Source: Myxococcota bacterium
GTDB taxonomy: Bacteria > Myxococcota_A > UBA796 > UBA2385
Assembly (NCBI GenBank): GCA_044344255.1
Contig: JBIJDH010000001.1
Span: forward strand, 192,001 to 256,000
Direction of reading: 5' to 3'
DNA: 64,000 nt
Each line of letters starts with the position of its first letter. The stretch's first letter is position 1. Below, one piece after another: positions 16,038 to 27,325 of the stretch. Under the pieces are notes generated by a model. The model was not told where the DNA came from. It worked only from the letters and a program-made list of their open reading frames with translations, and did not search any database. A program made the translations under genes and the position numbers.

Positions 16038-16484
16038 TCAGTCCACCGGGGCCCCCTTCAGCCCCAGTCGGGCGACGAGCCCCTGCACGGTGCGCCGCAG
16101 GGCCGCGCGCTCCTCCTCGCCGAGGTAGCCGAAGACCTCGGCGTCGTTACGGTCCGCCTCGGCCGCGAGCGTGGGGACGAGGCTCCGCCCAGGGTCCGTG
16201 AGAGCGACCCGCAGCGCCCGGCCATCCGAGGGGTCGCCCCGGACCGCGACGAGCCCCTTGGCCGCGAGGCGGTCGAGCAGCTTGGACACCGCCCCTCGGG
16301 TCAGCCCCAGCCGCTGCGCGAGCTGGCTGGGCATGATCCCCTCGTCCCCGTAGAGCGCCCTCAAGACGACCCACTCGGCCACGGTGACGTCGTGGGGATC
16401 GAGCCGCTCCCGAAAGGACTGCGAGACGTGGTTCGACACCAGGCGGAGCCAGTAGCCGAGGTGGTCTTCGAGCCCGCTGACCAT
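16038..16484 (-). CDS. MarR family transcriptional regulator
   Basis: HLGYWLRLVSNHVS; wHTH LTRGAVSKLLDRL; DGRA...LT..G. Confidence 0.9.
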   Translation of the reverse strand: MVSGLEDHLGYWLRLVSNHVSQSFRERLDPHDVTVAEWVVLRALYGDEGIMPSQLAQRLGLTRGAVSKLLDRLAAKGLVAVRGDPSDGRALRVALTDPGRSLVPTLAAEADRNDAEVFGYLGEEERAALRRTVQGLVARLGLKGAPVD

Positions 16485-16518
16485 CACAGGGCCAGCACTG
16501 GACGTGGAATTTGGTATA

Positions 16519-16920
16519 TCAGCTGGGAAAGTGCTCGACATGGGTCTCCGCGGTGCGGCCATAGTAAACCACGCGCCGGCCGAGGAATGACACCGTGTAG
16601 CCCGCGCACCCGGCCGCCCTCACCGAGCGGCCGAACCCGGCGTAGCTGTAGCCGGGGGCCTTGGCCTGGGCCTCGCGCACGGCCCGCTCGACCACCGGAG
16701 CCTGAAACTCGGCCGCGACCGACGCGCGCTCCTCGGGAATCGCCAGCTCGATGCTCGCGCCGCTGGGCAGGAAGTATGTGGCCCGGTTGAGCCGGTAGTC
16801 AACGGTGTAGGACTCAAACCCCGCCTCGATCAGCGCGCGGACAATCGCGGGGAAGTCCATCGTCCCCTCGTAGGCGGCGGCGAGGCAGCGTTCGGCCATC
16901 TGGGTCTGGGCGTCGGACAT
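16519..16920 (-). CDS. DUF1398 family protein
   Basis: AGCAGYTVSFLGRRVVYYGRTAETHVEHFP C-terminus; paired with MarR. Confidence 0.8.
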   Translation of the reverse strand: MSDAQTQMAERCLAAAYEGTMDFPAIVRALIEAGFESYTVDYRLNRATYFLPSGASIELAIPEERASVAAEFQAPVVERAVREAQAKAPGYSYAGFGRSVRAAGCAGYTVSFLGRRVVYYGRTAETHVEHFPS

Positions 16921-16997
16921 GGCGTTCTCGCTCCATTCGTGCGTTGGGTGGGTGGGCGGCGGGCGCCTCCCGCCCGGCCTGCACATCCTATCCGCAA

Positions 16998-17019
16998 ATA
17001 CTTTCCTAGGCAACCATAT
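16998..17019. promoter_or_regulatory. Candidate MarR operator (palindrome centred on CCTAGG)
   Basis: TTTCCTAGGCAA near-palindrome in an AT-rich patch upstream of DUF1398-marR. Confidence 0.45.
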
Positions 17020-17149
17020 GGAGGCCCACCACCGAGCGTAGAGCGCACGCGAACCGGAGCCGAGGCTCACCTGCCCGGGACCGTCGGCGCCTCGCTCCCA
17101 CGCCGCTCACCCACGGCGTGACCATCCCCCCTCAACCCGTCGCTCGGCC

Positions 17150-18067
17150 CTACCCCTCGCGGGAGAGGTCGGCTGCGGCGCTGCTCAGGAGGCCCCGGAA
17201 CCAGACGTGCTCAGGCGCCCCATCCACCCTCGGGTGCCAGACCGCCATCAGCGTGTAGGTCGGCACCGGCAACGGCGTGGGGAGGGCTCGGAGCGGCAGC
17301 CGCCCCTCCACCGCTGCGACCAGCCGCCGCGACACCGTGAGCAGCAGATCGCCGTCCCCCAGCTGCCAGAGCGCAGAAAGGAAATTCGGGACAGTGCGCA
17401 CGATCCGCCGCGCGAGGCCTCGCTCGGCGAGCACCTCGTCGATGGCGCCGACCGGCGTTCCGCGGGGCGCGACGAGCAGGTGCCCCTCCTCGAGGAACCG
17501 CTCCAGCGTGAGCTCCCTGTCCCGGAGGCGGGGGTGGTCGGGGCGGCACACCGTCACAAAGCCGTCCGAGAACAGCCTCCGGCCGCGCATCTCCGGCGGT
17601 GCCTCCGGAAATACGCCCAAGGCGACGTCTACCTCCCCGGCGCGGAGCTCCTCCATCACGGTCGGGAAGAGGGGGCGCTCGTGCAGCGCCGCGCTCGGGG
17701 CGCCCGCGCGGAGCGCCGCCGCGACCCGAGGCAGCAGGACGGTCGAGATGTGGTCGGTGCACACCACGCGGAAGGCGTGCGCACAGGTGGATGGATCGAA
17801 GCGCGCGGGGGGCTCCAAGGCCCGCCGGACGCCGTCGAGCGCCTCTCGCACCGGGACAGCGAGCGCCTCCGCGCGCGGCGTCGCGACCAGCCCGGCGCCC
17901 GCGCGCACGAGGAGCTCATCGCTGAGGAGCCCGCGCAAGCGACCGAGGGTGTGGCTCATGGCGGAGGGCGTGACACCCGCGGCCCGTGCAGCCCCTCTCA
18001 CGGAGCGGTGCTCCAGGAGCTGATCGAGGGCCACGAGGAGGTTGAGGTCGATCGCGGAGAGGTTCAC
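17150..18067 (-). CDS. LysR family transcriptional regulator
   Basis: DLNLLVAL...TPSAMSHTLGRLR HTH plus substrate-binding domain; divergent from the GFA gene. Confidence 0.93.
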   Translation of the reverse strand: MNLSAIDLNLLVALDQLLEHRSVRGAARAAGVTPSAMSHTLGRLRGLLSDELLVRAGAGLVATPRAEALAVPVREALDGVRRALEPPARFDPSTCAHAFRVVCTDHISTVLLPRVAAALRAGAPSAALHERPLFPTVMEELRAGEVDVALGVFPEAPPEMRGRRLFSDGFVTVCRPDHPRLRDRELTLERFLEEGHLLVAPRGTPVGAIDEVLAERGLARRIVRTVPNFLSALWQLGDGDLLLTVSRRLVAAVEGRLPLRALPTPLPVPTYTLMAVWHPRVDGAPEHVWFRGLLSSAAADLSREG

Positions 18068-18224
18068 GTGTGTTCGATATCGCTCATCCCGCAGCTGAGC
18101 ATGTTCAACTTTCCTCCTGTCGGTCTCGGCGCTACCTTCCTGACCTGAGAACCCCCGTTTCCTGGACCGTCACTCCCTTCATCGGCGGATTCGTCCTTAT
18201 CAACCTCTGACCCGGAGTTGTCCC

Positions 18225-18590
18225 ATGCCTTCGCTCCCCACCGGCCGATGCCACTGTGGCGCCGTCACCGTCGAGGTGCCCCCCTCCTCGTTCGGCGTCC
18301 TCGCTTGCCACTGTGACGACTGCCAGCGCCTCCACGGCAACTTCTTCGCGTTCGTCGCCGCACCCGCCGCGGATGTGGTGTGGACGGGCGAGGAGCACAT
18401 CCGGTGGTACGACAGCTCGCCTGCGGCCCGGCGGTCCTTCTGCGAGCGCTGCGGGAGCCGCCTCGCGAAGAGGCCGGTCGGCTCCGATCGCGTGCTCGTG
18501 AGCGTGGGGCTCTTCGGTCCCGACACCGGGCTCCGCATCGCGAAGGAGCTGTATGCGGACCGCAAGCCCGACTGGTACGCCCACCCCTGA
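18225..18590 (+). CDS. GFA (CENP-V) family Zn-binding protein
   Basis: GRCHCGAV, CHCDDCQR and RSFCERCGS motifs. Confidence 0.9.
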   Translation: MPSLPTGRCHCGAVTVEVPPSSFGVLACHCDDCQRLHGNFFAFVAAPAADVVWTGEEHIRWYDSSPAARRSFCERCGSRLAKRPVGSDRVLVSVGLFGPDTGLRIAKELYADRKPDWYAHP

Positions 18591-18604
18591 TCCCTGGAGC
18601 TCCC

Positions 18605-18823
18605 ATGCGCAACGTAATCCTCGGCGCCGGTCGCGTCGGCGGGACCCTTGGCCGGCGGCTCGCCGACGCCGGTCACACCGAGGTGTACGGCCTCCGACCC
18701 GGACGGGACGGTCTCCCCGTTGAGCTCCGCGGCGAGCGCGCCTGGGCCGCCGCGGAGGCGGCGCTCGCCGGTGGTGGCGACTTCGGCGGGAAGCCGCTCT
18801 TCGACACGACCAACCCCACATGA
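18605..18823 (+). pseudogene. Truncated F420-dependent NADP oxidoreductase-like remnant
   Basis: ILGAGRVGGTLG Rossmann start and GKPLFDTTNP motif, but only 72 aa. Confidence 0.65.
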
Positions 18824-19629
18824 CGACCCTCCGACTCTCCAACGGGGTTGAGATCCCCATCGTGGGGCTCGGGGTCTTCCGCGCCGGCCCCGCCGAGACC
18901 AGGGGCGCCGTACGCGCCGCGATCGAGGCCGGATATCGGCACGTCGACACGGCGCGGGTCTACGGCAACGAGGAGGCTGTGGGCGCGGCGATCCGGGAGT
19001 GCGGTGTGCCCCGTGACGCGCTCTTCGTCACGACGAAGCTCTGGAACGCCGACCAGGGAGAGGAGAAGGCGCTGGCCGCCTTCGAGGAGAGCCGTCGCCG
19101 GCTCGGGCTGGAGCAGGTCGACCTCTACCTGGTCCATTGGCCCGTGCCCGGGCTCCGCCTGGGCTCGTGGCGCGCCCTGGAGCGCCTCCTGCACGACGGC
19201 CGGGTGCGCGCCATCGGGGTGAGCAACTTCCTCTCCCCCCACCTGGACGAGCTGGAAGGGGCGGCGCAGGTGCTTCCGCACGTCGACCAGATCGAGGTCC
19301 ACCCGTTCCACCAGCAGCGGGAGACGCGCGCCTGGTGCGCCCGTCGCGGGGTGGCCGTGGAGGCGTACAGCCCGCTCACGAGAGGCGCGCGCCTGGAGCA
19401 CCCGACCCTGCGAGCGATCGCCGCACGGCTGGGCCGGACCCCTGCGCAGGTGCTCTTGCGCTGGGGCGTCGAGGCTGGGATGGTGGTGCTGCCCAAGTCT
19501 GTCCGCCCCGCGCGGATCACCGAGAACGTGGCGCTCTTCGACTTCGCCCTCGACGACGCGGCGCGCGCGGCGCTCGACGCCCTGGACGAGGGCCTGGCCA
19601 CCGGCTGGGATCCGCGTGGCCAACCCTGA
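18820..19629 (+). CDS. Aldo/keto reductase (2,5-DKG reductase-like)
   Basis: GYRHVDTARVYGNE, DLYLVHWP, IGVSNF and LPKS motifs. Confidence 0.93.
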   Translation: MTTLRLSNGVEIPIVGLGVFRAGPAETRGAVRAAIEAGYRHVDTARVYGNEEAVGAAIRECGVPRDALFVTTKLWNADQGEEKALAAFEESRRRLGLEQVDLYLVHWPVPGLRLGSWRALERLLHDGRVRAIGVSNFLSPHLDELEGAAQVLPHVDQIEVHPFHQQRETRAWCARRGVAVEAYSPLTRGARLEHPTLRAIAARLGRTPAQVLLRWGVEAGMVVLPKSVRPARITENVALFDFALDDAARAALDALDEGLATGWDPRGQP

Positions 19630-19648
19630 CCCCCTCCGAGGACCGGGC

Positions 19649-20863
19649 ATGAGCGAGCATTTGACCCAGGAGGAGGAGCGCCGGACCACGTTCCTCGAGC
19701 TGTTCTTCGACCTCGTCCTCGTCTTCGCCGTCACCCAGCTGGCGGCGATGCTGCACGACGTGCCCCACCACGCGCCAGGGCACGAGATGGTTGGGGTGGC
19801 GGAGGTCGCGCTGCTCGCAGCGCTGACCTGGTGGCTCTGGTCCCAGTTCGCCTGGCTCGGCACCAGCGTCCGCCTGGCCGCCGCCGTGCCCCGCGCGCTC
19901 ACGCTGGTGCTGACCGGGATCGTGCTGATCGCCGCTGTGGGTCTGCCCGTGGCCTTCCAGCCGGGTGTCGCCGTGTTCGGCGTGGCGTACGGGCTCGTCA
20001 AGCTCGGCGCGCTCGTCCTCTACCGCATCGACACCGCAGACGACCGCGCCCACGCTGCCGCGGTGGACGCCTACCTCGGTCGGGCCGCGATCGCGCCCCT
20101 GCTCGTCATGGGGGCCTCCTTCGTGTCGCCGGGGCTGCGGCTCGTGCTGTGGTCCGTCGCGCTCGCCATCGAGGTGGGGGGCACCCTCCAGGTCGGCCGG
20201 CAGGCTTTCCGCGTGAGCCCCCTGCACTTCGCCGAGCGCCACGCCCTCGTGCTCATCGTCGTGCTCGGCGAGGCGGTGGTCGCGCTTGGCGGAAAGGCGG
20301 TCGCCTCCACGCTGTCCGTGGCGGCCATCGGGGGGCTCCTCGGTGGCTTCGCGCTCGTGGCGGCGCTCTGGTGGAGCTACTTCGCCTGGAGCGCAGAGGC
20401 CGGCGAAGCTTGGCTCCGCGGGCACGGGCGGTCCTTCGCGCAGGGCGATGTGGGCGCCGCGGCGCGGATGGCACGAGACGCCTTCACCTTCGGCCACTTC
20501 CCGCTGGTAGCCGGCATGATCGCGGTGGCCGTGGCGCTCAAGGACCTCGCGGCGGAGCCCCTCTCCCCCTGGTCGGGCGCGGCCCGCGTGTCGATCGCGG
20601 TCGGCCTATCCCTTTACCTCGGGGGGCACGCGGCGGTGGTCTGGCGCGGCGCCGGGCAACGATTGGTCGAGCGCCTGCTCATCATCCCAGTCGTGGTCGC
20701 GACGGCGGCCTTCGCGCCGCTTCCGGCGGGGCTGACCTCAGCGCTGCTCGCGGCGCAGCTCCTCGTCGCGCTCTCGTTCGAGTCCCGGCGCTGGCGCCAA
20801 GCGCGAGCGTCGGCGATTGCCCAGGAGCCAGCGGGTGACCGTTCGACCGGGGCGAGCGACTGA
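19649..20863 (+). CDS. Low temperature requirement protein A (LtrA) family
   Basis: TFLELFFDLVLVFAVTQ; HFAERHAL.LIVVLGE. Confidence 0.9.
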   Translation: MSEHLTQEEERRTTFLELFFDLVLVFAVTQLAAMLHDVPHHAPGHEMVGVAEVALLAALTWWLWSQFAWLGTSVRLAAAVPRALTLVLTGIVLIAAVGLPVAFQPGVAVFGVAYGLVKLGALVLYRIDTADDRAHAAAVDAYLGRAAIAPLLVMGASFVSPGLRLVLWSVALAIEVGGTLQVGRQAFRVSPLHFAERHALVLIVVLGEAVVALGGKAVASTLSVAAIGGLLGGFALVAALWWSYFAWSAEAGEAWLRGHGRSFAQGDVGAAARMARDAFTFGHFPLVAGMIAVAVALKDLAAEPLSPWSGAARVSIAVGLSLYLGGHAAVVWRGAGQRLVERLLIIPVVVATAAFAPLPAGLTSALLAAQLLVALSFESRRWRQARASAIAQEPAGDRSTGASD

Positions 20864-21113
20864 CCTGGATCGCGGAGGGGTCACGAGCCTCGACCCACCG
20901 GACCTCGAGAGGAGCTCGGCGCTCGGCGTTGGGACGAGCCCTGGCCACCGGGCCATCCGGCCGCCGCGACGACGTGGCGGAGGCACCCGCGGGTGCAGCC
21001 CCCCCGCGCGAGCGTCAGCCCACGCGACGGCGGGAGCCCTTCGCCGGATTCGAACCACGATGCAAGGGTCTTACCGGGCTCGGGGTGGTCGAATCACGCG
21101 GAGCGCCACCCCC

Positions 21114-21263
21114 TCGAACCCCCAAAAGTCAGGAAGGCCCGCCGAATCTCACGATTCTGACGGGCCTTCAGGAGGTTGGTCGGGGTCACAGAATGCATAT
21201 CGAACTTTCTGGCTCGACCCCAGGGGGTGGTGCAGCGAGCGCATGCTTGCTTTCGAGGCTGCG
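21114..21263. repeat. att-like junction A: arm X + core TGGTCGGGGT (21177-21186) + arm Y
   Basis: 21114-21186 matches 27185-27257 at 70/73 nt; 21177-21217 is identical to 22284-22324 over 41 nt. Confidence 0.9.
21134..21168 (-). terminator. Hairpin in arm X, terminator-like on the minus strand
   Basis: AAGGCCCG..GAATC / GATTC..CGGGCCTT, followed on the minus strand by a short T run. Confidence 0.55.
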
Positions 21264-21479
21264 ATCCGGCTGGATGTGGGACCTGGGAGGTGACGGGGTC
21301 CTGGGGTCCTGGGCGGCCGACCCCGCCGTGGCCGACGGGTGAGGGGCACTTGGTGGTGGCGCCCCACTGCTCGGCACCGACTCAGACCTCGGTGGGGCCC
21401 GGGAAGGTGCAAGCAGTCCCTAACTTCCGCCGAGCCCGAGCCATCGCCGCCGCGACGACGTGCCCGGGACGACGGCGCG

Positions 21480-21519
21480 TTGTCTTGGCGCCGCAGGTCG
21501 GGTATGATGAAGTCATACC
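21480..21519 (+). promoter_or_regulatory. TA promoter with operator palindrome
   Basis: TTGTCT-N17-TATGAT; inverted repeat GGTATGA-N5-TCATACC over the -10. Confidence 0.65.
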
Positions 21520-21532
21520 GCAGGAGAATGCG

Positions 21533-21814
21533 ATGGCCCACGCTGAGAAGCGCACCTTCAGCCTCCCCGCCGAGCATGCGACCTTCATCGACGAACAGGT
21601 CGCGTCGGGCAGCTATGCGTCCGCGAGCGAGGTGGTCCGCGCCGGGTTGCGCGCACTGCAGGAGCGCGACGCGGCCGTTGAACGATGGCTTCGCGAAGAG
21701 GTCGCCCCGGTCTATGACGCCATGAAGGCTGATCCTGGGCGCGCTCGGAGCATGGAGGAGGTCTTCGGTGCGATCCGTGCCCGACACGCCAAGACGCTTG
21801 CAGATAGCTCGTGA
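21533..21814 (+). CDS. parD: Type II antitoxin, ParD family (ribbon-helix-helix)
   Basis: SGSYASASEVVRAGLRAL motif; AGGAG RBS; GTGA overlap with the toxin. Confidence 0.88.
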   Translation: MAHAEKRTFSLPAEHATFIDEQVASGSYASASEVVRAGLRALQERDAAVERWLREEVAPVYDAMKADPGRARSMEEVFGAIRARHAKTLADSS

Positions 21815-22110
21815 AGGAGCGTAGCGTCGTCCTCGCGCCTGAAGCGGTAGAAGACCTCAACGAGCTCTACGACTGGGTCGCTGCCCAAGCCTCGCCTGAT
21901 GTAGCGATGGGCTACCTCAAACGGGTCGAAGCCTTTTGTCAGCGGTTGAGCCTCGGATCCGAGCGGGGACACCTGCGCGGCGACATTCGACCCGGCCTCC
22001 GGATCACGGGGTTCGAGCGCCGCTTGACCATCGCGTTCACCGTAGAAGAGGAGACCGTGACGGTGCTTCGCGTGTTCACCGCCGGGCGGAACTGGGAGAC
22101 GTCGTTCTGA
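21811..22110 (+). CDS. parE: Type II toxin, RelE/ParE family
   Basis: A.EDLNELYDW, RGDIRPGLR and V.VLRVF motifs; 99 aa. Confidence 0.88.
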   Translation: MKERSVVLAPEAVEDLNELYDWVAAQASPDVAMGYLKRVEAFCQRLSLGSERGHLRGDIRPGLRITGFERRLTIAFTVEEETVTVLRVFTAGRNWETSF

Positions 22111-22243
22111 CGCCGCGCGCCGACCTCGGGTCCGGCGACCGCAAAGACCCGGCCCGATGGAGGTCGACCCGATCGGGATTCGAATCACGAAAGCTTACGT
22201 TTAGCCTGCATAATATGGCGATAGGCACGCCGTAAATGCAGAA

Positions 22244-22370
22244 CGACCCGGCGAGAACCAAGGTTCAAGTCGGGTCGCTAATATGGTCGGGGTCACAGAA
22301 TGCATATCGAACTTTCTGGCTCGATTCCCAGGGGTGGGGAAGCGAGCGGGTGTTGGCGTTCGTGGCTGCT
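22244..22370. repeat. att-like junction B: hairpin arm Z + core (22284-22293) + arm Y
   Basis: 41 nt identical to junction A, then codon-level similarity to 22370; hairpin CGACCCG/CGGGTCG at 22244-22277. Confidence 0.88.
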
Positions 22371-22553
22371 TCGACCTCTCCCGAGCCCTCCCTATCCCTG
22401 GGGCACCTGCACCGGGCGCCTTAGCGTATCGAAAGCGGGCGCCCGTGGGCTGGTCCTCGACCTCACCCGGGCAGTTGGCCGAGTGGCGAGCCGCACGCAC
22501 CTCGCATCGTCGCATGGGTTGGCGTGCCTCAGGTCGTGCCGCTATGCTCCGTC

Positions 22554-24605
22554 ATGCTCCCCGCCCTCCTCCCCGTCCTCCTCCTCGCCTGCTCCACCCC
22601 GTTCCCGTGCGCGCAGGACGAGCTACTCGACGCCGACGGCAGCTGCGTCCCCGGCTCGAAGAACACCGGCGCCGAAGATGACACCGGCCTCGACACGAGC
22701 GACGACACCGGAGAGCCCCCGGACACCGACGACACCGCCCCCCAAGATGCCGACGGGGACGGCAGCACCGCCGACGAGGACTGCGATGACGGAGATCCGC
22801 AGACGTTCCCCGGCGCGGTCGAGGCCCGCGACGGACGTGACCAGGACTGCGATGGGTATGTCGACGAGGACGTGCCGGACCTGCTCTTCGACCTCGCCGA
22901 CCCGCGCCATGCGGTATGGGGTCTCGGGGCGAACATCTGGCCCGACGCCGATGCGTGGGTGGCCCCGTTGGACACGCTCCATGGGCGCCTCGTGCGCGCC
23001 AACCTGGGCCCGGTCTGGGACACCACCGGCGTGGATGTGCCGCTCGGCGGCGGCGCGTCGGACTACGACGCCTACGTGGCCTCGGCGATGGCGACGACCG
23101 GCTTCGGGAGCCTCGAGGACGCGCTCACCACGTCGGCCGAGATTGACCGCCTCGGCCTGGACCTCGTGCTCGTGAACTTCGAAGCCCCGTCCGAGATGGA
23201 GGCGTCGGGCGTCCTCCAGTCGGCGTACGTCGAGGACTACGCGCACCTCGTCGCGGCGCTGGTGGGCCACCTCGCCGACAACGGGATCGACGTCCCCTGG
23301 CTGGAGGTGACGAACGAGCCGGACGGCTCGTGGAACACCTATGTGTACCCGTCCGACTACTCGGCGCTGATCGTCGCCGTCCGCGCCGACCTCGACGCCC
23401 GAGGACTCGTCGACACGCGCATCGCGGGGCCGGGGCTCTCCACCCTCGCGCAGGGCGGCGCCTCCACGCGGTTCCTCGACGCGCTCACGCCCGACGCCGT
23501 CGCCGCGCTCGGCGCCTGGTCGGCCCACGGCTACGACGACACCTACGCGAACGGGGACGGCGTGACCGTGTTTCGCGACGCTGTCGCGGACTTCTCCGCG
23601 AGGACGCGCGAGGTCGATCCCGACCTGCCGTTTCTGCTCACCGAGTTGGCCTCGATGGACCCGAGCTACCATGGCGTCGCGACCGAGAGCCCTCTCACGT
23701 GTGGCGACTGGTCCTCCACCGAGGGATACGGCGTGCGGATGTTGACGTACACGCTCCTGGCGCTCGGGGAGGGGGCGTCGGCGGTCCTCCCCTGGCAGGC
23801 AGCCGACCCGGATTGGGGGGGGTGCTGGGGCAGCTTCGGCATGGTGGATGTCGAAGGGACGGCGCGCCCCTTCCTGGCCACCCTCGCGGCGTTGGCACAG
23901 GCGTTACCGGACGATGCCCGGCTTGTGGGCCCGGACGAGCGCGACCCGGCGATGGCTGTCGCCGGGTTCGTGGCCGAGGACCGCTTCGTCCTCGCGCTTG
24001 CCAACCCCACATCGGAGCCGCGCACCCGGACCATCGGATGGACCGGCGCCGACACCCTGGCGCTGACGAGCAGCGTCGGCGTTGGCGGCGCGTCGTACTC
24101 GGAGGAGTACGGGTTCGAGGACGTAAAGACCCTCGCCTTCGGCCCGGGCATCTGGCAGGACACCTCGAGCGCGGAGTACTTCGCGGACGACGACGCCCGG
24201 CTCGGCGGCGCCGGCGGGGCGTGGATCATCCTCGGGGACGGCACGCCCATCACCGACTTCACGCTCGACGCGTGGCGCTGGAGCGGGATCGAGTCCGGGT
24301 CGTTCGCCGTGGAGGCCAGCGAGGACGGCGTCACCTGGACCCCCGTGGCGGTCGACGAGGCCGTCGAGTCAGGTCCGTGGGATCGCGTGACGTTCACCCC
24401 GCCAGCGATGCTGGCGGGGTGCGGCTGGATCCGAGTGACATGGCCCACCCTCGATCCCGAGTGGGCGCTCGAGTTGGGCGGCGCCGCGCTCGACCTCCAA
24501 CCCGGCCCCCTCGAGGTTCCCGACCCCGGGCCCATCGGAGCCCCGCGTACGATCTCCGTGGAGGTCCCCGCCGAGAGCGGACTCGTCCTCGTGCTGTCCC
24601 GATGA
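22554..24605 (+). CDS. Lipoprotein: MopE-like Asp/Cys repeat + clan GH-A TIM barrel (GH30/39-like) + discoidin/CBM-like domain
   Basis: LLLAC lipobox; DADGDG..DCDD..PGAVE..DGRDQDCDG; NEPD acid/base; LLTE nucleophile; EASEDGVTW. Confidence 0.7.
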   Translation: MLPALLPVLLLACSTPFPCAQDELLDADGSCVPGSKNTGAEDDTGLDTSDDTGEPPDTDDTAPQDADGDGSTADEDCDDGDPQTFPGAVEARDGRDQDCDGYVDEDVPDLLFDLADPRHAVWGLGANIWPDADAWVAPLDTLHGRLVRANLGPVWDTTGVDVPLGGGASDYDAYVASAMATTGFGSLEDALTTSAEIDRLGLDLVLVNFEAPSEMEASGVLQSAYVEDYAHLVAALVGHLADNGIDVPWLEVTNEPDGSWNTYVYPSDYSALIVAVRADLDARGLVDTRIAGPGLSTLAQGGASTRFLDALTPDAVAALGAWSAHGYDDTYANGDGVTVFRDAVADFSARTREVDPDLPFLLTELASMDPSYHGVATESPLTCGDWSSTEGYGVRMLTYTLLALGEGASAVLPWQAADPDWGGCWGSFGMVDVEGTARPFLATLAALAQALPDDARLVGPDERDPAMAVAGFVAEDRFVLALANPTSEPRTRTIGWTGADTLALTSSVGVGGASYSEEYGFEDVKTLAFGPGIWQDTSSAEYFADDDARLGGAGGAWIILGDGTPITDFTLDAWRWSGIESGSFAVEASEDGVTWTPVAVDEAVESGPWDRVTFTPPAMLAGCGWIRVTWPTLDPEWALELGGAALDLQPGPLEVPDPGPIGAPRTISVEVPAESGLVLVLSR

Positions 24606-24694
24606 GGCGCACCCGGGGCTGGCGCGCGGTCGGCCTGCCGATGAACGGCCTCGTCGTCGCCTGTCACTCCCCGTCCGCCCGCTCGCCCGCCGCG

Positions 24695-26908
24695 ATGCGC
24701 ACGCGAGGCCCCGGACCGCTCCCGTTCCGCTGGGTCGCGCGGTTAGTGTCGCTTCTGCTGTTGGCGAGCTGTGGGAAGCCCTCCACTGGCGGAGATGTGC
24801 CGCGGGACTCGGGGCCCCACGTGGACACCGCCGAGGACCACGACACGAGCCCCGCCGACGACACCGGCGGCGACGACACCGGTGGCGACGACACCGGTGG
24901 CGACGACGGGTTCGTCGACGGCACTGACATCAGCGCCCTGTTGCAGGAGCGGATCGACGTGCTCGGCGCCGCCGGGGGGGGAAGGATTGCGCTGCCGGCC
25001 GGCACCTTCCTGGTTTCGTCTCCCATCACCCTCAAGAGCCGGGTGTGGATCGAGGGCGAAGGCGAGGCGACGGTGCTCCAGACGGTTGCAGGGAGCCTGG
25101 AGGGGCTGGACGCCGCCCTGTTCCACTCGCGTGGCGTCATGCTCGAGGGGGCGTCCGTCCGACGGCTCCACGTCGAAGGGGGTGCCACGCCTGGACTGAC
25201 CGCGCTCTACCTGGAGGACGCCCGCTTCAACCTCTTCGACGACATCTCGGTGAGCGGCCTGTCGGACGGGACGTTGTACGTCGGCTACCCGCTCGGTGGC
25301 AGCAACGACTCTCTGGGCTCGAACATCAACAACTACGCCAACATCTTCTCCGACATGAGCATGGACGAGGGGCGGTACGGGCTGATTCTCCACGGGCTTC
25401 AGGATCCGGCGAGCGCAGACCCTTTGCCCAGCAGCGTGATCACCCTCAACAGCTATCGAGCCATCACCCTGAGCTCGATCTCCGGGATCGGAGTTCAGTC
25501 CGTGTCGTGGAGTGACAGCGAGAACTTCGACACGCTCCGGATCTCCGTGCGCGAGCCGGACGCCGTCGGACTCGACCTGCGTGATGCTGGCATCCTGCCT
25601 GGGCAATACGTAGGGGCCGCGAATTACCAGTTCGCCTGGACCACAATCGACGCGGCATCGCCGATGGATGTCATCGGCGTTCGCTTCGCTCCGCTCACCG
25701 GCGGTTTCTCGTTCCTTGGTCTGTCGCTGGGAGAGGGCGTCCAGTTCGATGATTCGGGGACACAGAGCTACTTCGCCGCCGGGACGTTCGCGGTGCCGAC
25801 GGCCGCGGGGACCTGTGACGGGTTGGAGGCGAGAGCGGCGCCGGCGGACGAGTTGCGGATCGGGCCACCTGCCGAGGGCGGCGCTAGCGAGCTCATCCAG
25901 GAGAGCATCGACGCGCTCGCCAGCGGAGGGGGCGGTGTGCTGCGGCTGACCGCCGGGGACTACCTCGTCGATCGTCCGATCGAGCTGGCGAGCGACGTGT
26001 GGATCGAGGGGGACGGGTTTGCGACGGTGCTCGTCCCTTCCAGCGCCGTGGAAGCGGTGTTCGAGAACTCGGGGAGCCTCTCCCGCGCTAGTATCTCCGA
26101 CCTCGCCGTGGACGGCTCGACGGAGCCGACCACCTGGGCCTTCAGCCTGTCGAACCCCCAAGAGGTCCTCGTCGCCAACATTTTCGGCACGCGTCTGATC
26201 TCCGGTGGCGCTGTGCGGGTCCGGACCACCGAAGCGGCCGTCGGCAACTGCTTCCAGAACCTCCTCTTCGACGAGGTTCGCGGGGGGATCGTGGTGAACG
26301 ACAACGCCGACGCACCGGCGGAAGCGACGTTCAGCGCCAGCGAGTTCCGCAGCATCAAGCTTCTTCATGTGGAGGAGTTGGGCATTGGGGTGCTACGCCG
26401 CGTGGCCGACAGTCTGTTCTCCGATCTGGTCATCTGGAATGGCCAGGGGGCCGCGACCGCCATCCTGGTTGGGAGCCCCTACCAGGTGGTGGGCGATCCA
26501 GACCTCCCGGGGCGCTCCGTGACCGGCCTGACCTTCTACAACGTCACCGAGACGATGGAGGGGGGCGGGGCGGCGCACATCTACGGCAACACTGCTTCGG
26601 CGGCGAATTCCGAGGAATCGATCGGAGTTCGTTTCTCCGACACGAGCGGCCATGCGCTCCTCGGGGTGTTCTATACATCCTGGTACTGGAAGAACCCGGT
26701 CATCGCGACGGGCTCCGACAATCTCACGATCGCCACGAATGTGAGCGAGGCACTCCGAGGCTCGTCCGACTGGTGGACGGCGTACGAATTCCCCATGTCT
26801 GGGTTGTACGAGTACGGGTGCACCACGCTGTGTACCGAACCGTTGGGCGACGTGACCTCCAAGGGGGTCGTCAACCTCGGCGAAGCGGGGGTGGCGTACA
26901 TGCCTTGA
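24695..26908 (+). CDS. Lipoprotein with two pectate-lyase-3/GH55-like beta-helix modules
   Basis: LLASC lipobox; GGDDT repeats; two copies of Q..ID....GGG...L.AG.(F/Y)LV..PI.L.S.VWIEG.G.ATVL. Confidence 0.7.
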   Translation: MRTRGPGPLPFRWVARLVSLLLLASCGKPSTGGDVPRDSGPHVDTAEDHDTSPADDTGGDDTGGDDTGGDDGFVDGTDISALLQERIDVLGAAGGGRIALPAGTFLVSSPITLKSRVWIEGEGEATVLQTVAGSLEGLDAALFHSRGVMLEGASVRRLHVEGGATPGLTALYLEDARFNLFDDISVSGLSDGTLYVGYPLGGSNDSLGSNINNYANIFSDMSMDEGRYGLILHGLQDPASADPLPSSVITLNSYRAITLSSISGIGVQSVSWSDSENFDTLRISVREPDAVGLDLRDAGILPGQYVGAANYQFAWTTIDAASPMDVIGVRFAPLTGGFSFLGLSLGEGVQFDDSGTQSYFAAGTFAVPTAAGTCDGLEARAAPADELRIGPPAEGGASELIQESIDALASGGGGVLRLTAGDYLVDRPIELASDVWIEGDGFATVLVPSSAVEAVFENSGSLSRASISDLAVDGSTEPTTWAFSLSNPQEVLVANIFGTRLISGGAVRVRTTEAAVGNCFQNLLFDEVRGGIVVNDNADAPAEATFSASEFRSIKLLHVEELGIGVLRRVADSLFSDLVIWNGQGAATAILVGSPYQVVGDPDLPGRSVTGLTFYNVTETMEGGGAAHIYGNTASAANSEESIGVRFSDTSGHALLGVFYTSWYWKNPVIATGSDNLTIATNVSEALRGSSDWWTAYEFPMSGLYEYGCTTLCTEPLGDVTSKGVVNLGEAGVAYMP
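24857..24907 (+). repeat. 15-bp coding tandem repeat (DDTGG)n
   Basis: GACGACACCGG(C/T)GGC x3. Confidence 0.7.
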
Positions 26909-27184
26909 GGGTCGTGGACCGCAATCGACCCGCCCTCTCGGCCGGCCGGGCAGAGACCACGTGTTGGACATCGGGCGGTTGCCGACGCCGCGGTTCTCTC
27001 CCCAGCCGTTGTCGGAGCCGACAGAACCAGCATTCGGCGACCTCCTCGACGACTTGACTGCGGCCAAGCCCAAGCTCGGAGACCGCCGCAACGGGGGCGG
27101 CGCTCGGCGGTGGTGTCGCCACGACCCTGAAGCGATTCGAACCACCTCACTCACATCGGCCGCGCGGGGAGCGATCCTGCTCCA

Positions 27185-27325
<141 letters not shown>

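Follow-up and report, generated by a model that had tools for sequence, protein, structure and literature searches.

In the ssrA islands of Dehalococcoides, the DsiB gene always overlaps attL, and 15 of 31 islands lack the integration module; dsiB may be complete only on the circular form, or downstream of an adjacent island that provides a 3' fragment (McMurdie et al. 2011, PMC3146451). For large serine recombinases (LSRs), comparison of attP with attB places the zinc-ribbon motif 5 bp further outward in the P-type arm, and the length of DNA contacted by the enzyme is given as 25 to 30 bp (PMC3783163). The text of a 2014 database paper describes serine recombinases as not known to target tRNA genes (PMC4383910). 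No description of a tRNA-Pro LSR family was found in the literature searched, which consisted of the main texts of mainly open-access papers; the main text of PMC10083194 does not contain the word 'tRNA', and the portions covered of PMC11476347, PMC6507118 and 10.1101/2025.09.16.676606 held nothing bearing on the system. The layout of the locus reported here has already been published for Dehalococcoides. What is added is evidence of selection, in-frame chromosomal fusions and an exactly relocated cassette.

The window, that is, the whole stretch of 64,000 nucleotides of a Myxococcota genome that was analysed, contains three copies of a core, TGGTCGGGG, which is the antisense of the tRNA-Pro 3' end (junctions A, B and C; Table 1). 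Junction C is the 3' end of tRNA-Pro(cgg) itself. Arm Y, which follows the core, is alike at A and B over 86 nt (86% identity), and arm X, which precedes it, is alike together with the core at A and C over 84 nt (92% identity). The junctions delimit a ParDE cassette of 1107 bp (21177-22283) and a second cassette of 4964 bp (22284-27247) with two large cargo genes. No recombinase gene and no LSR homology was detected in the window, and PF00589 (tyrosine recombinase) had no match in it and three matches elsewhere in the source genome. The window left of junction A contained no further Y, and the far Y arm of the unit to which X_A belongs was not found.

Table 1. Junctions, arms, cargo genes and target of the cassette array in the window
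Feature	Position	Strand	Remarks
Arm X_A	21111..21176	+	Hairpin and T-tract, terminator-like in the tRNA sense; 92% identical to X_C
Core A, TGGTCGGGG	21177..21185	+	Crossover inferred within GTCG
Arm Y_A	21186..21293	+	P-type att arm and orphan LSR tail coding sequence; TCGAAC placed 5 bp outward relative to the tRNA; frame of 38 aa from 21177, stop 21291-21293
parD antitoxin	21533..21814	+	ParDE cassette cargo; PF03693, E 8e-11; TIGR02606
parE toxin	21811..22110	+	ParDE cassette cargo; PF05016, E 2e-11
Arm X_B	22225..22283	+	Hairpin end of ParDE cassette; directly abuts tRNA-Pro(tgg) in L225
Core B	22284..22292	+	Copy of TGGTCGGGG
Arm Y_B	22293..22424	+	Att arm and orphan LSR tail; mosaic: identical to A over its first 41 nt, with a distal part as in L267; resemblance to A ends near 22370; frame of 46 aa from 22284, stop 22422-22424
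Cargo gene 1 of 4964-bp cassette	22524..24605	+	PF11617; MopE-like metal-binding motif; start codon uncertain
Cargo gene 2 of 4964-bp cassette	24641..26908	+	Pectate-lyase-like domain, PF12708, E 2e-7; start uncertain
Arm X_C	27182..27247	+	Cassette end supplying the tRNA's terminator-like hairpin
tRNA-Pro(cgg), target	27248..27325	-	ARAGORN; core C at its 3' end; antisense W-S-G-stop at 27248-27259 (attL-like junction C)

Arm X contains a stable hairpin followed by a T-rich tract in the tRNA sense, which likely serves as a terminator for the tRNA. A native terminator was ruled out, as the same family was found inside arrays elsewhere. The initial annotation had counted two synonymous changes among the three differences between X_A (from 21114) and X_C, and this count is correct. 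The X_A/X_C family comprises 34 of 124 X arms; of its 32 anchored copies, 11 are shifted by one base and several others contain stops. Coding by arm X in cassettes was ruled out by these off-frame copies and stops, indicating that the cassette X family is not coding, though the X arms of intact LSR genes are.

Genes for MarR, a DUF1398-like protein, LysR, GFA, an aldo-keto reductase and LtrA (16038-20863) end at X_A. This group, whose far side has no Y, may be a third cassette that has decayed. A GGATTCGAA(C/T)C-like motif is located at 21046, 21087, 22176 and 27134, 90 to 130 bp before each core. It is similar both to the tRNA T-loop read in antisense and to the motif of Y, also precedes X arms in relatives, and is perhaps an accessory site.

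Very probably, a clade of LSRs inserts at tRNA-Pro ends through an attP inside its own gene, cassettes carrying the Y tail stack and move there, the cassettes of the window were moved in trans, and the tail is functional. The enzyme (resolvase, recombinase and zinc-ribbon domains, about 520 to 570 aa) would integrate DNA at the 3'-terminal bases of tRNA-Pro genes, and its gene would point at the tRNA and cross attP. Arm X would encode a flexible linker, with its other strand acting as the new terminator of the tRNA, and arm Y would encode a Trp-rich tail of 30 to 40 residues required for full enzyme activity or stability. The two cassettes of the window, left without a recombinase, would have been moved by a visiting or lost LSR.

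A profile built from 14 Y peptides had matches in 63 of the 154 genomes of the order and in 15 of 301 genomes of a phylum sample (13 in the order, 2 in the class). The search of 1.84 billion protein representatives with this profile returned 54 matches, 20 of which were retrieved, picked by length. P0011 and P0020 have an LSR zinc ribbon with Y at the end, as the initial annotation had predicted for a protein search with Y, and in five others (P0040, P0034, P0046, P0012 and P0026) the last LSR segment (R-K-P-F-like) was recognized by eye. Two were tyrosine integrases with a Y end in frame (P0009, 410 aa, PF00589; and P0049), one was an FG-GAP cargo protein that is also Y-ended (P0016), and the remaining retrieved proteins belonged to no informative family.

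Homologs of P0020 were matched in 53 of the 154 genomes of the order. Of the 30 highest-ranking of these LSR loci, 27 had a convergent tRNA (21 Pro, 5 Val, 1 Gln), and the other three ended in a tRNA-Pro left incomplete by the contig edge, in Y, and in what we take to be a tmRNA-like sequence. The LSR entered the core in the W-S-G frame at 26 of 27 parsed junctions, the exception, L168, being frameshifted. At L221, an LSR of 566 aa is open through X, core and Y; it has PF00239, PF07508 and PF13408 (resolvase, recombinase and zinc-ribbon domains), all above cut-off, and homologues P0056-P0076. Its Y is, over the compared stretch, that of a 960-bp recombinase-less cassette at tRNA-Pro(cgg) in L253. 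The L221 contig stops 140 bp later, so a circle and an array look the same there. In AlphaFold2 models, the LSR body was confident, the X-coded linker was disordered, and the tail was predicted, with low confidence (pLDDT about 65 in one model and under 50 in another), as a pair of short helices. These results indicate that Y is the C-terminal tail of an LSR whose attachment site lies within its own gene, in agreement with the initial proposal of a recombinase gene spanning attP.

Long open frames at G092:C11, G127:C92, G132:C214 and G021:C127 contained no recombinase domain. In viral contigs, P0001 gave 30 pattern matches, none of which was confirmed, and the DNA pattern gave five loci, none with an LSR; the best match in a phage collection was 31% identical and unannotated. 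Similar tails exist on tRNA-adjacent LSRs of other phyla. Four low-GC metagenome loci (L238, L243, L263 and L275) have W-S-x-x-x-N-D-Y-R-T starts with different continuations, and are probably related tails from other lineages.

The source genome has four Y arms in all, over three tRNA-Pro loci: those at junctions A and B, one at C15:99801, which is interrupted by a TGA and lies 2.3 kb from tRNA-Pro(ggg), and one at C26:45580, 16.6 kb from tRNA-Pro(tgg). At the tRNA-Pro genes beside the C15 and C26 arms, the W-S-G frame is open for 31 and 21 residues, respectively, with no immediate stop. None of the nine PF07508 matches in this genome has a Y end, and no cognate LSR was found in the assembly (95% complete, 83 contigs), the nearest, on C9, being 44% identical and having a different core. 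The cassettes had been described as devoid of a recombinase gene, which holds for the window and is matched by the lack of a close cognate in this assembly.

The gene of the paralogous C9 LSR, whose identity to the tRNA-Pro clade is 44%, has a TGGCTCCC core at its end, and the 221-nt arm behind this core (C9:9005-9225) recurs at 92% on C11:2880-3100 (L008). The last 8 bases of the tRNA-Asn on C36 are the same as TGGCTCCC. The C9/C11 arms are possibly a parallel system with its own tail. A second tRNA-Pro(cgg), of 91 nt, was called by ARAGORN at C24:28916-29006. ParE-like ORFs, recognized by eye, end just before several other junctions, in the source genome (C26:45100-45480) and at L055, L060 and L061, and toxin-antitoxin cargo seems common in these cassettes.

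Counted from the first T, the sequence TCGAAC occupies positions 24-29 in Y and 19-24 in the tRNA arm, a displacement of 5 bp. GAA is located at position 22 in 110 of 113 Y arms and at position 17 in 43 of 43 tRNA arms. The left arm has a weak consensus in LSR X arms, and cassette X arms are without a clear profile peak or P-type motif. Junctions with deviant bases suggest that the crossover falls within GTCG, TC having the fewest exceptions. The junctions at which cassettes land have left arms of LSR, cassette or tyrosine-element origin. Because the left arms of used junctions vary in origin, the enzyme seems to need little from the left arm, which would explain accretion at the tRNA end. The half-sites that are read strongly would be the long, P-type arm Y and the short, B-type arm of the tRNA; with a nearly free left arm, the tRNA junction would stay a usable target and arrays would grow at that end.

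At junction C, the frame reads TGG TCG GGG TGA, as had been stated. Among 22 LSR/tRNA-Pro junctions, 8 stop at W-S-G and 14 run on for 17 to 192 residues; integration thus truncates only about one-third, since the stop depends on the acceptor stem of the host tRNA. In every case Y is lost, indicating that integration replaces it by tRNA antisense, that is, by a stop or by 17 to 192 junk residues. The recombinase ORFs ending in W-S-G-stop at tRNA-Pro that the initial annotation had foreseen are therefore found, at 8 of the 22 junctions. Of the truncation upon integration that it had proposed, the loss of Y is general and the truncation itself is confined to these eight.

LSR-Y fusions were found in frame at the tRNA-distal array end in L137 and L318, and also in L305 (a short contig). 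Those in L225, L236, L146 and L306 are decayed, with the LSR of L225 shifted by one extra base in the G run before the core. A cassette that lands at the tRNA thus pushes the earlier element outward and fuses its own Y to the LSR of that element. A neighbouring cassette can, judging from these fusions, provide the tail on the chromosome. The gene had been thought to be full-length on the circle only, a restriction that falls with the fusions at the far end of chromosomal arrays.

The frames of junctions A and B differ at 10 codons, 5 of them synonymous, with no indels, exactly as first claimed; the other five frames have 1 to 3 synonymous codons. When 13 random substitutions were placed in nt 41-87, at least 5 synonymous codons without a stop were obtained in 0.8% of 20,000 trials, which becomes about 5% after the choice among six frames, so the A/B pair alone is only suggestive. 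A total of 121 distinct Y arms was collected, 95 of them in register with A; the other 26 were dropped as out of register or belonging to other subfamilies. Counting estimates of pN/pS were made for codons 11-28, beyond the DNA-binding part. The value was 0.30 for 44 independent nearest pairs of the 95 in-register arms, a set filtered on peptide features, which favours intact frames. Differences in this set numbered 152 at third positions versus 69 at first and 70 at second positions. In a sample taken by DNA pattern (43 arms, 20 pairs), pN/pS was 0.29. Four other frames gave 1.0 to 1.85, and the antisense frame sharing third positions gave 0.44 to 0.46. For the 24 closest pairs, pN/pS was 0.11, with 38 synonymous versus 16 non-synonymous single changes at a synonymous site fraction of 0.21. 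These results indicate that the Y tail is under real purifying selection as a protein, and bear out the codon selection initially proposed for it.

The selection may act on the cassette copies, or only on the LSR-borne copies that seed the cassettes. Y may once have been an LSR tail and be only a DNA handle in cassettes, the codon signal being a fossil spread by homologous recombination and the tail swap having no regulatory meaning. This reading, which differs from the scheme above in function only, is doubtful but has a substantial chance of being correct. LSR homology was located directly upstream in only 4 of the 120 Y junctions with enough upstream DNA, leaving 116 without it (the fusions in L137, L318, L305 and L306 lie outside this set). 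The Y arms are patchworks, with 4 to 8 differences per 87 nt (5-9%) next to cargo that differs by about 2%, and 6 of the 121, with C15 among the carriers, contain stops. Because the arms are mosaic and some contain stops, the synonymous excess may be inherited from LSRs and spread by recombination. The length of the integrated tail, 0 to about 190 residues, suggests tolerance, and a trivial explanation was also listed for the DsiB overlap (PMC3146451). In contrast, the closest Y pairs gave the lowest pN/pS (0.06 to 0.11) and not values near 1, as decay would give. No frameshift was detected in the first 90 nt of the 121 Y arms of the filtered set, aligned without gaps, and the conservation of Y extends about 60 nt past the 25 to 30 bp that an LSR contacts. 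Frameshifts or a missing synonymous excess had been named at the outset as signs against codon selection; in this set the frames are unshifted and the excess is present. Selection on the LSR-borne Y would itself still imply a useful tail.

If the tail is functional, as is preferred here, the chances are evenly balanced that its swap tunes LSR activity, by analogy with Mx8. A switch of direction specifically is a hypothesis less likely than tuning, and we consider it unlikely. Somewhat more unlikely again is an integron-like serine system in which each landed cassette would give its Y as a tail to the displaced LSR and would thereby switch activity or direction. If this were true, the selection on cassette-borne tails would be direct, and the state of the array would control recombination without a separate directionality factor.

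An Mx8/SSV1-type tyrosine integrase, the precedent on which the initial annotation drew, is a very improbable owner of Y. P0009 and P0049 do end in Y in frame, and relatives of P0009 (L344-L359) are convergent on tRNA-Pro at 10 of 16 loci. Nine such ORFs run into tRNA-Pro, but three do so in one frame and six in another, none of them W-S-G, and the two beside a Y-like arm (L344 and L357) are out of frame with it. The FG-GAP protein P0016 ends in Y too, indicating that in-frame matches arise by chance landing. The frame test therefore assigns Y to the LSR: the local tyrosine integrases use the other two frames, and tyrosine elements gain Y only when a cassette lands beside them, by which the tyrosine owner is largely refuted. 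The P0009-like loci also include two at tRNA-Ala, and two recombinase classes share the tRNA-Pro target.

Y is hardly a small independent peptide, a structured RNA or a pure DNA repeat. Databases do contain short predicted proteins (30 to 110 aa) with Y, but the Y arms have neither a start codon nor a conserved upstream frame in common, the open stretch before them varying from 0 to several hundred codons, and the excess of synonymous changes follows the frame used by LSRs on entering the core.

The ParDE unit of 1107 bp recurs in L225, 98.7% identical over 1116 of 1116 nt, core to core, and is located there between an LSR 3' end and tRNA-Pro(tgg). The DNA of cargo gene 1 recurs at 86 to 95% identity beside Y arms in other genomes. 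In the mapped loci of relatives, 1 to 4 or more cassettes are stacked behind a tRNA-Pro gene (cgg, ggg or tgg), and one stack is at tRNA-Gln. The 25 distinct Y-to-Y spacings range from 744 to 7906 bp, and 22 are under 4 kb. These comparisons indicate that cassettes with Y and X as their ends and no recombinase travel as precise units from one tRNA-Pro isoacceptor to another. The initial annotation had taken the cassettes for terminal remnants of the recombinase gene; the recombinase is indeed absent, but they are mobile units too. In one genome (G009), an LSR at tRNA-Pro(cgg) ends in W-S-G-stop, and the sole strong Y, which has the same orientation, is separated from it by about 42 kb that include restriction and helicase cargo. 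This element is probably autonomous.

Half or more of the words of the stretch were present in 14 DNA runs of lake and river metagenomes from 11 studies, of which two are possible sources; RNA runs contained small shares only. The contigs of four runs covering the locus, a form of data that drops rare forms, contained no circle, empty site or clean excision joint. A contig of 1396 nt in one run (X3, record 21; window 27185-27272), at the depth of the organism, combines a Y-like piece and an X-family arm with tRNA-Pro(tgg), an arrangement that differs from the tgg locus of the source genome. This is a hint of strain-level cassette exchange, or of another organism.

The DsiB islands resemble the present arrays of 1 to 4 or more cassettes in being tandem, many of them without an integration module (PMC3146451). 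The DsiB system uses the ssrA T-loop and a 20-bp repeat (PMC3146451), whereas the target here is the CCA end of tRNA-Pro (also Val and Gln in relatives) with a core of about 9 bp. The cassettes here are mostly 0.7 to 5 kb and the tail is conserved and under purifying selection, whereas the DsiB alignments in the cited text are divergent (PMC3146451). The present results add sequence support to the 2011 idea from Dehalococcoides that a serine recombinase whose gene overlaps the att site obtains its missing end from the circle or from the next island.

In Mx8, attP lies within the integrase gene and integration gives a new 3' end, and the host lineage is also myxobacterial (PMC6070905, PMC4383910). 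Mx8 Int is a phage tyrosine integrase (PMC6070905, PMC4383910), whereas a serine recombinase is involved here, with orphan tails on recombinase-less cassettes. The serine integrases of the Listeria LI/A118 phages have the same domain set and the same 5-bp outward shift (Rutherford et al. 2013, PMC3783163). Other site pairings are not recombined by canonical serine integrases (PMC3783163), whereas in the present system the tRNA junction seems to be used again after integration and conservation of the left arm is poor. The SCC/ECC elements (CcrAB) form composite stacks with several att sites, as here, but Ccr targets rlmH (PMC6222049), and the LSR here scores far below the NCBIfam cut-offs for Ccr (86.5 vs 900 bits). 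In tycheposons, new elements also push old ones away from the tRNA, but mostly by tyrosine recombinases (10.1101/2020.12.28.424599).

The LSRs targeting the CCA end of tRNA-Pro, which seemingly reuse their product site, form a testable set of enzymes and sites, and such LSRs could be used to insert DNA repeatedly at native tRNA genes. In integrons, small cargo cassettes, including toxin-antitoxin cassettes, accrete at one end, and end repeats are common to several cargoes. The present system resembles them in this broad scheme. It differs in that it has a serine recombinase that is not fixed beside the array, double-stranded att arms and a tRNA target, and lacks IntI. On the features tested, it works like the DsiB islands and Mx8 but is not a member of the ssrA island, Ccr, Mx8 or integron families.
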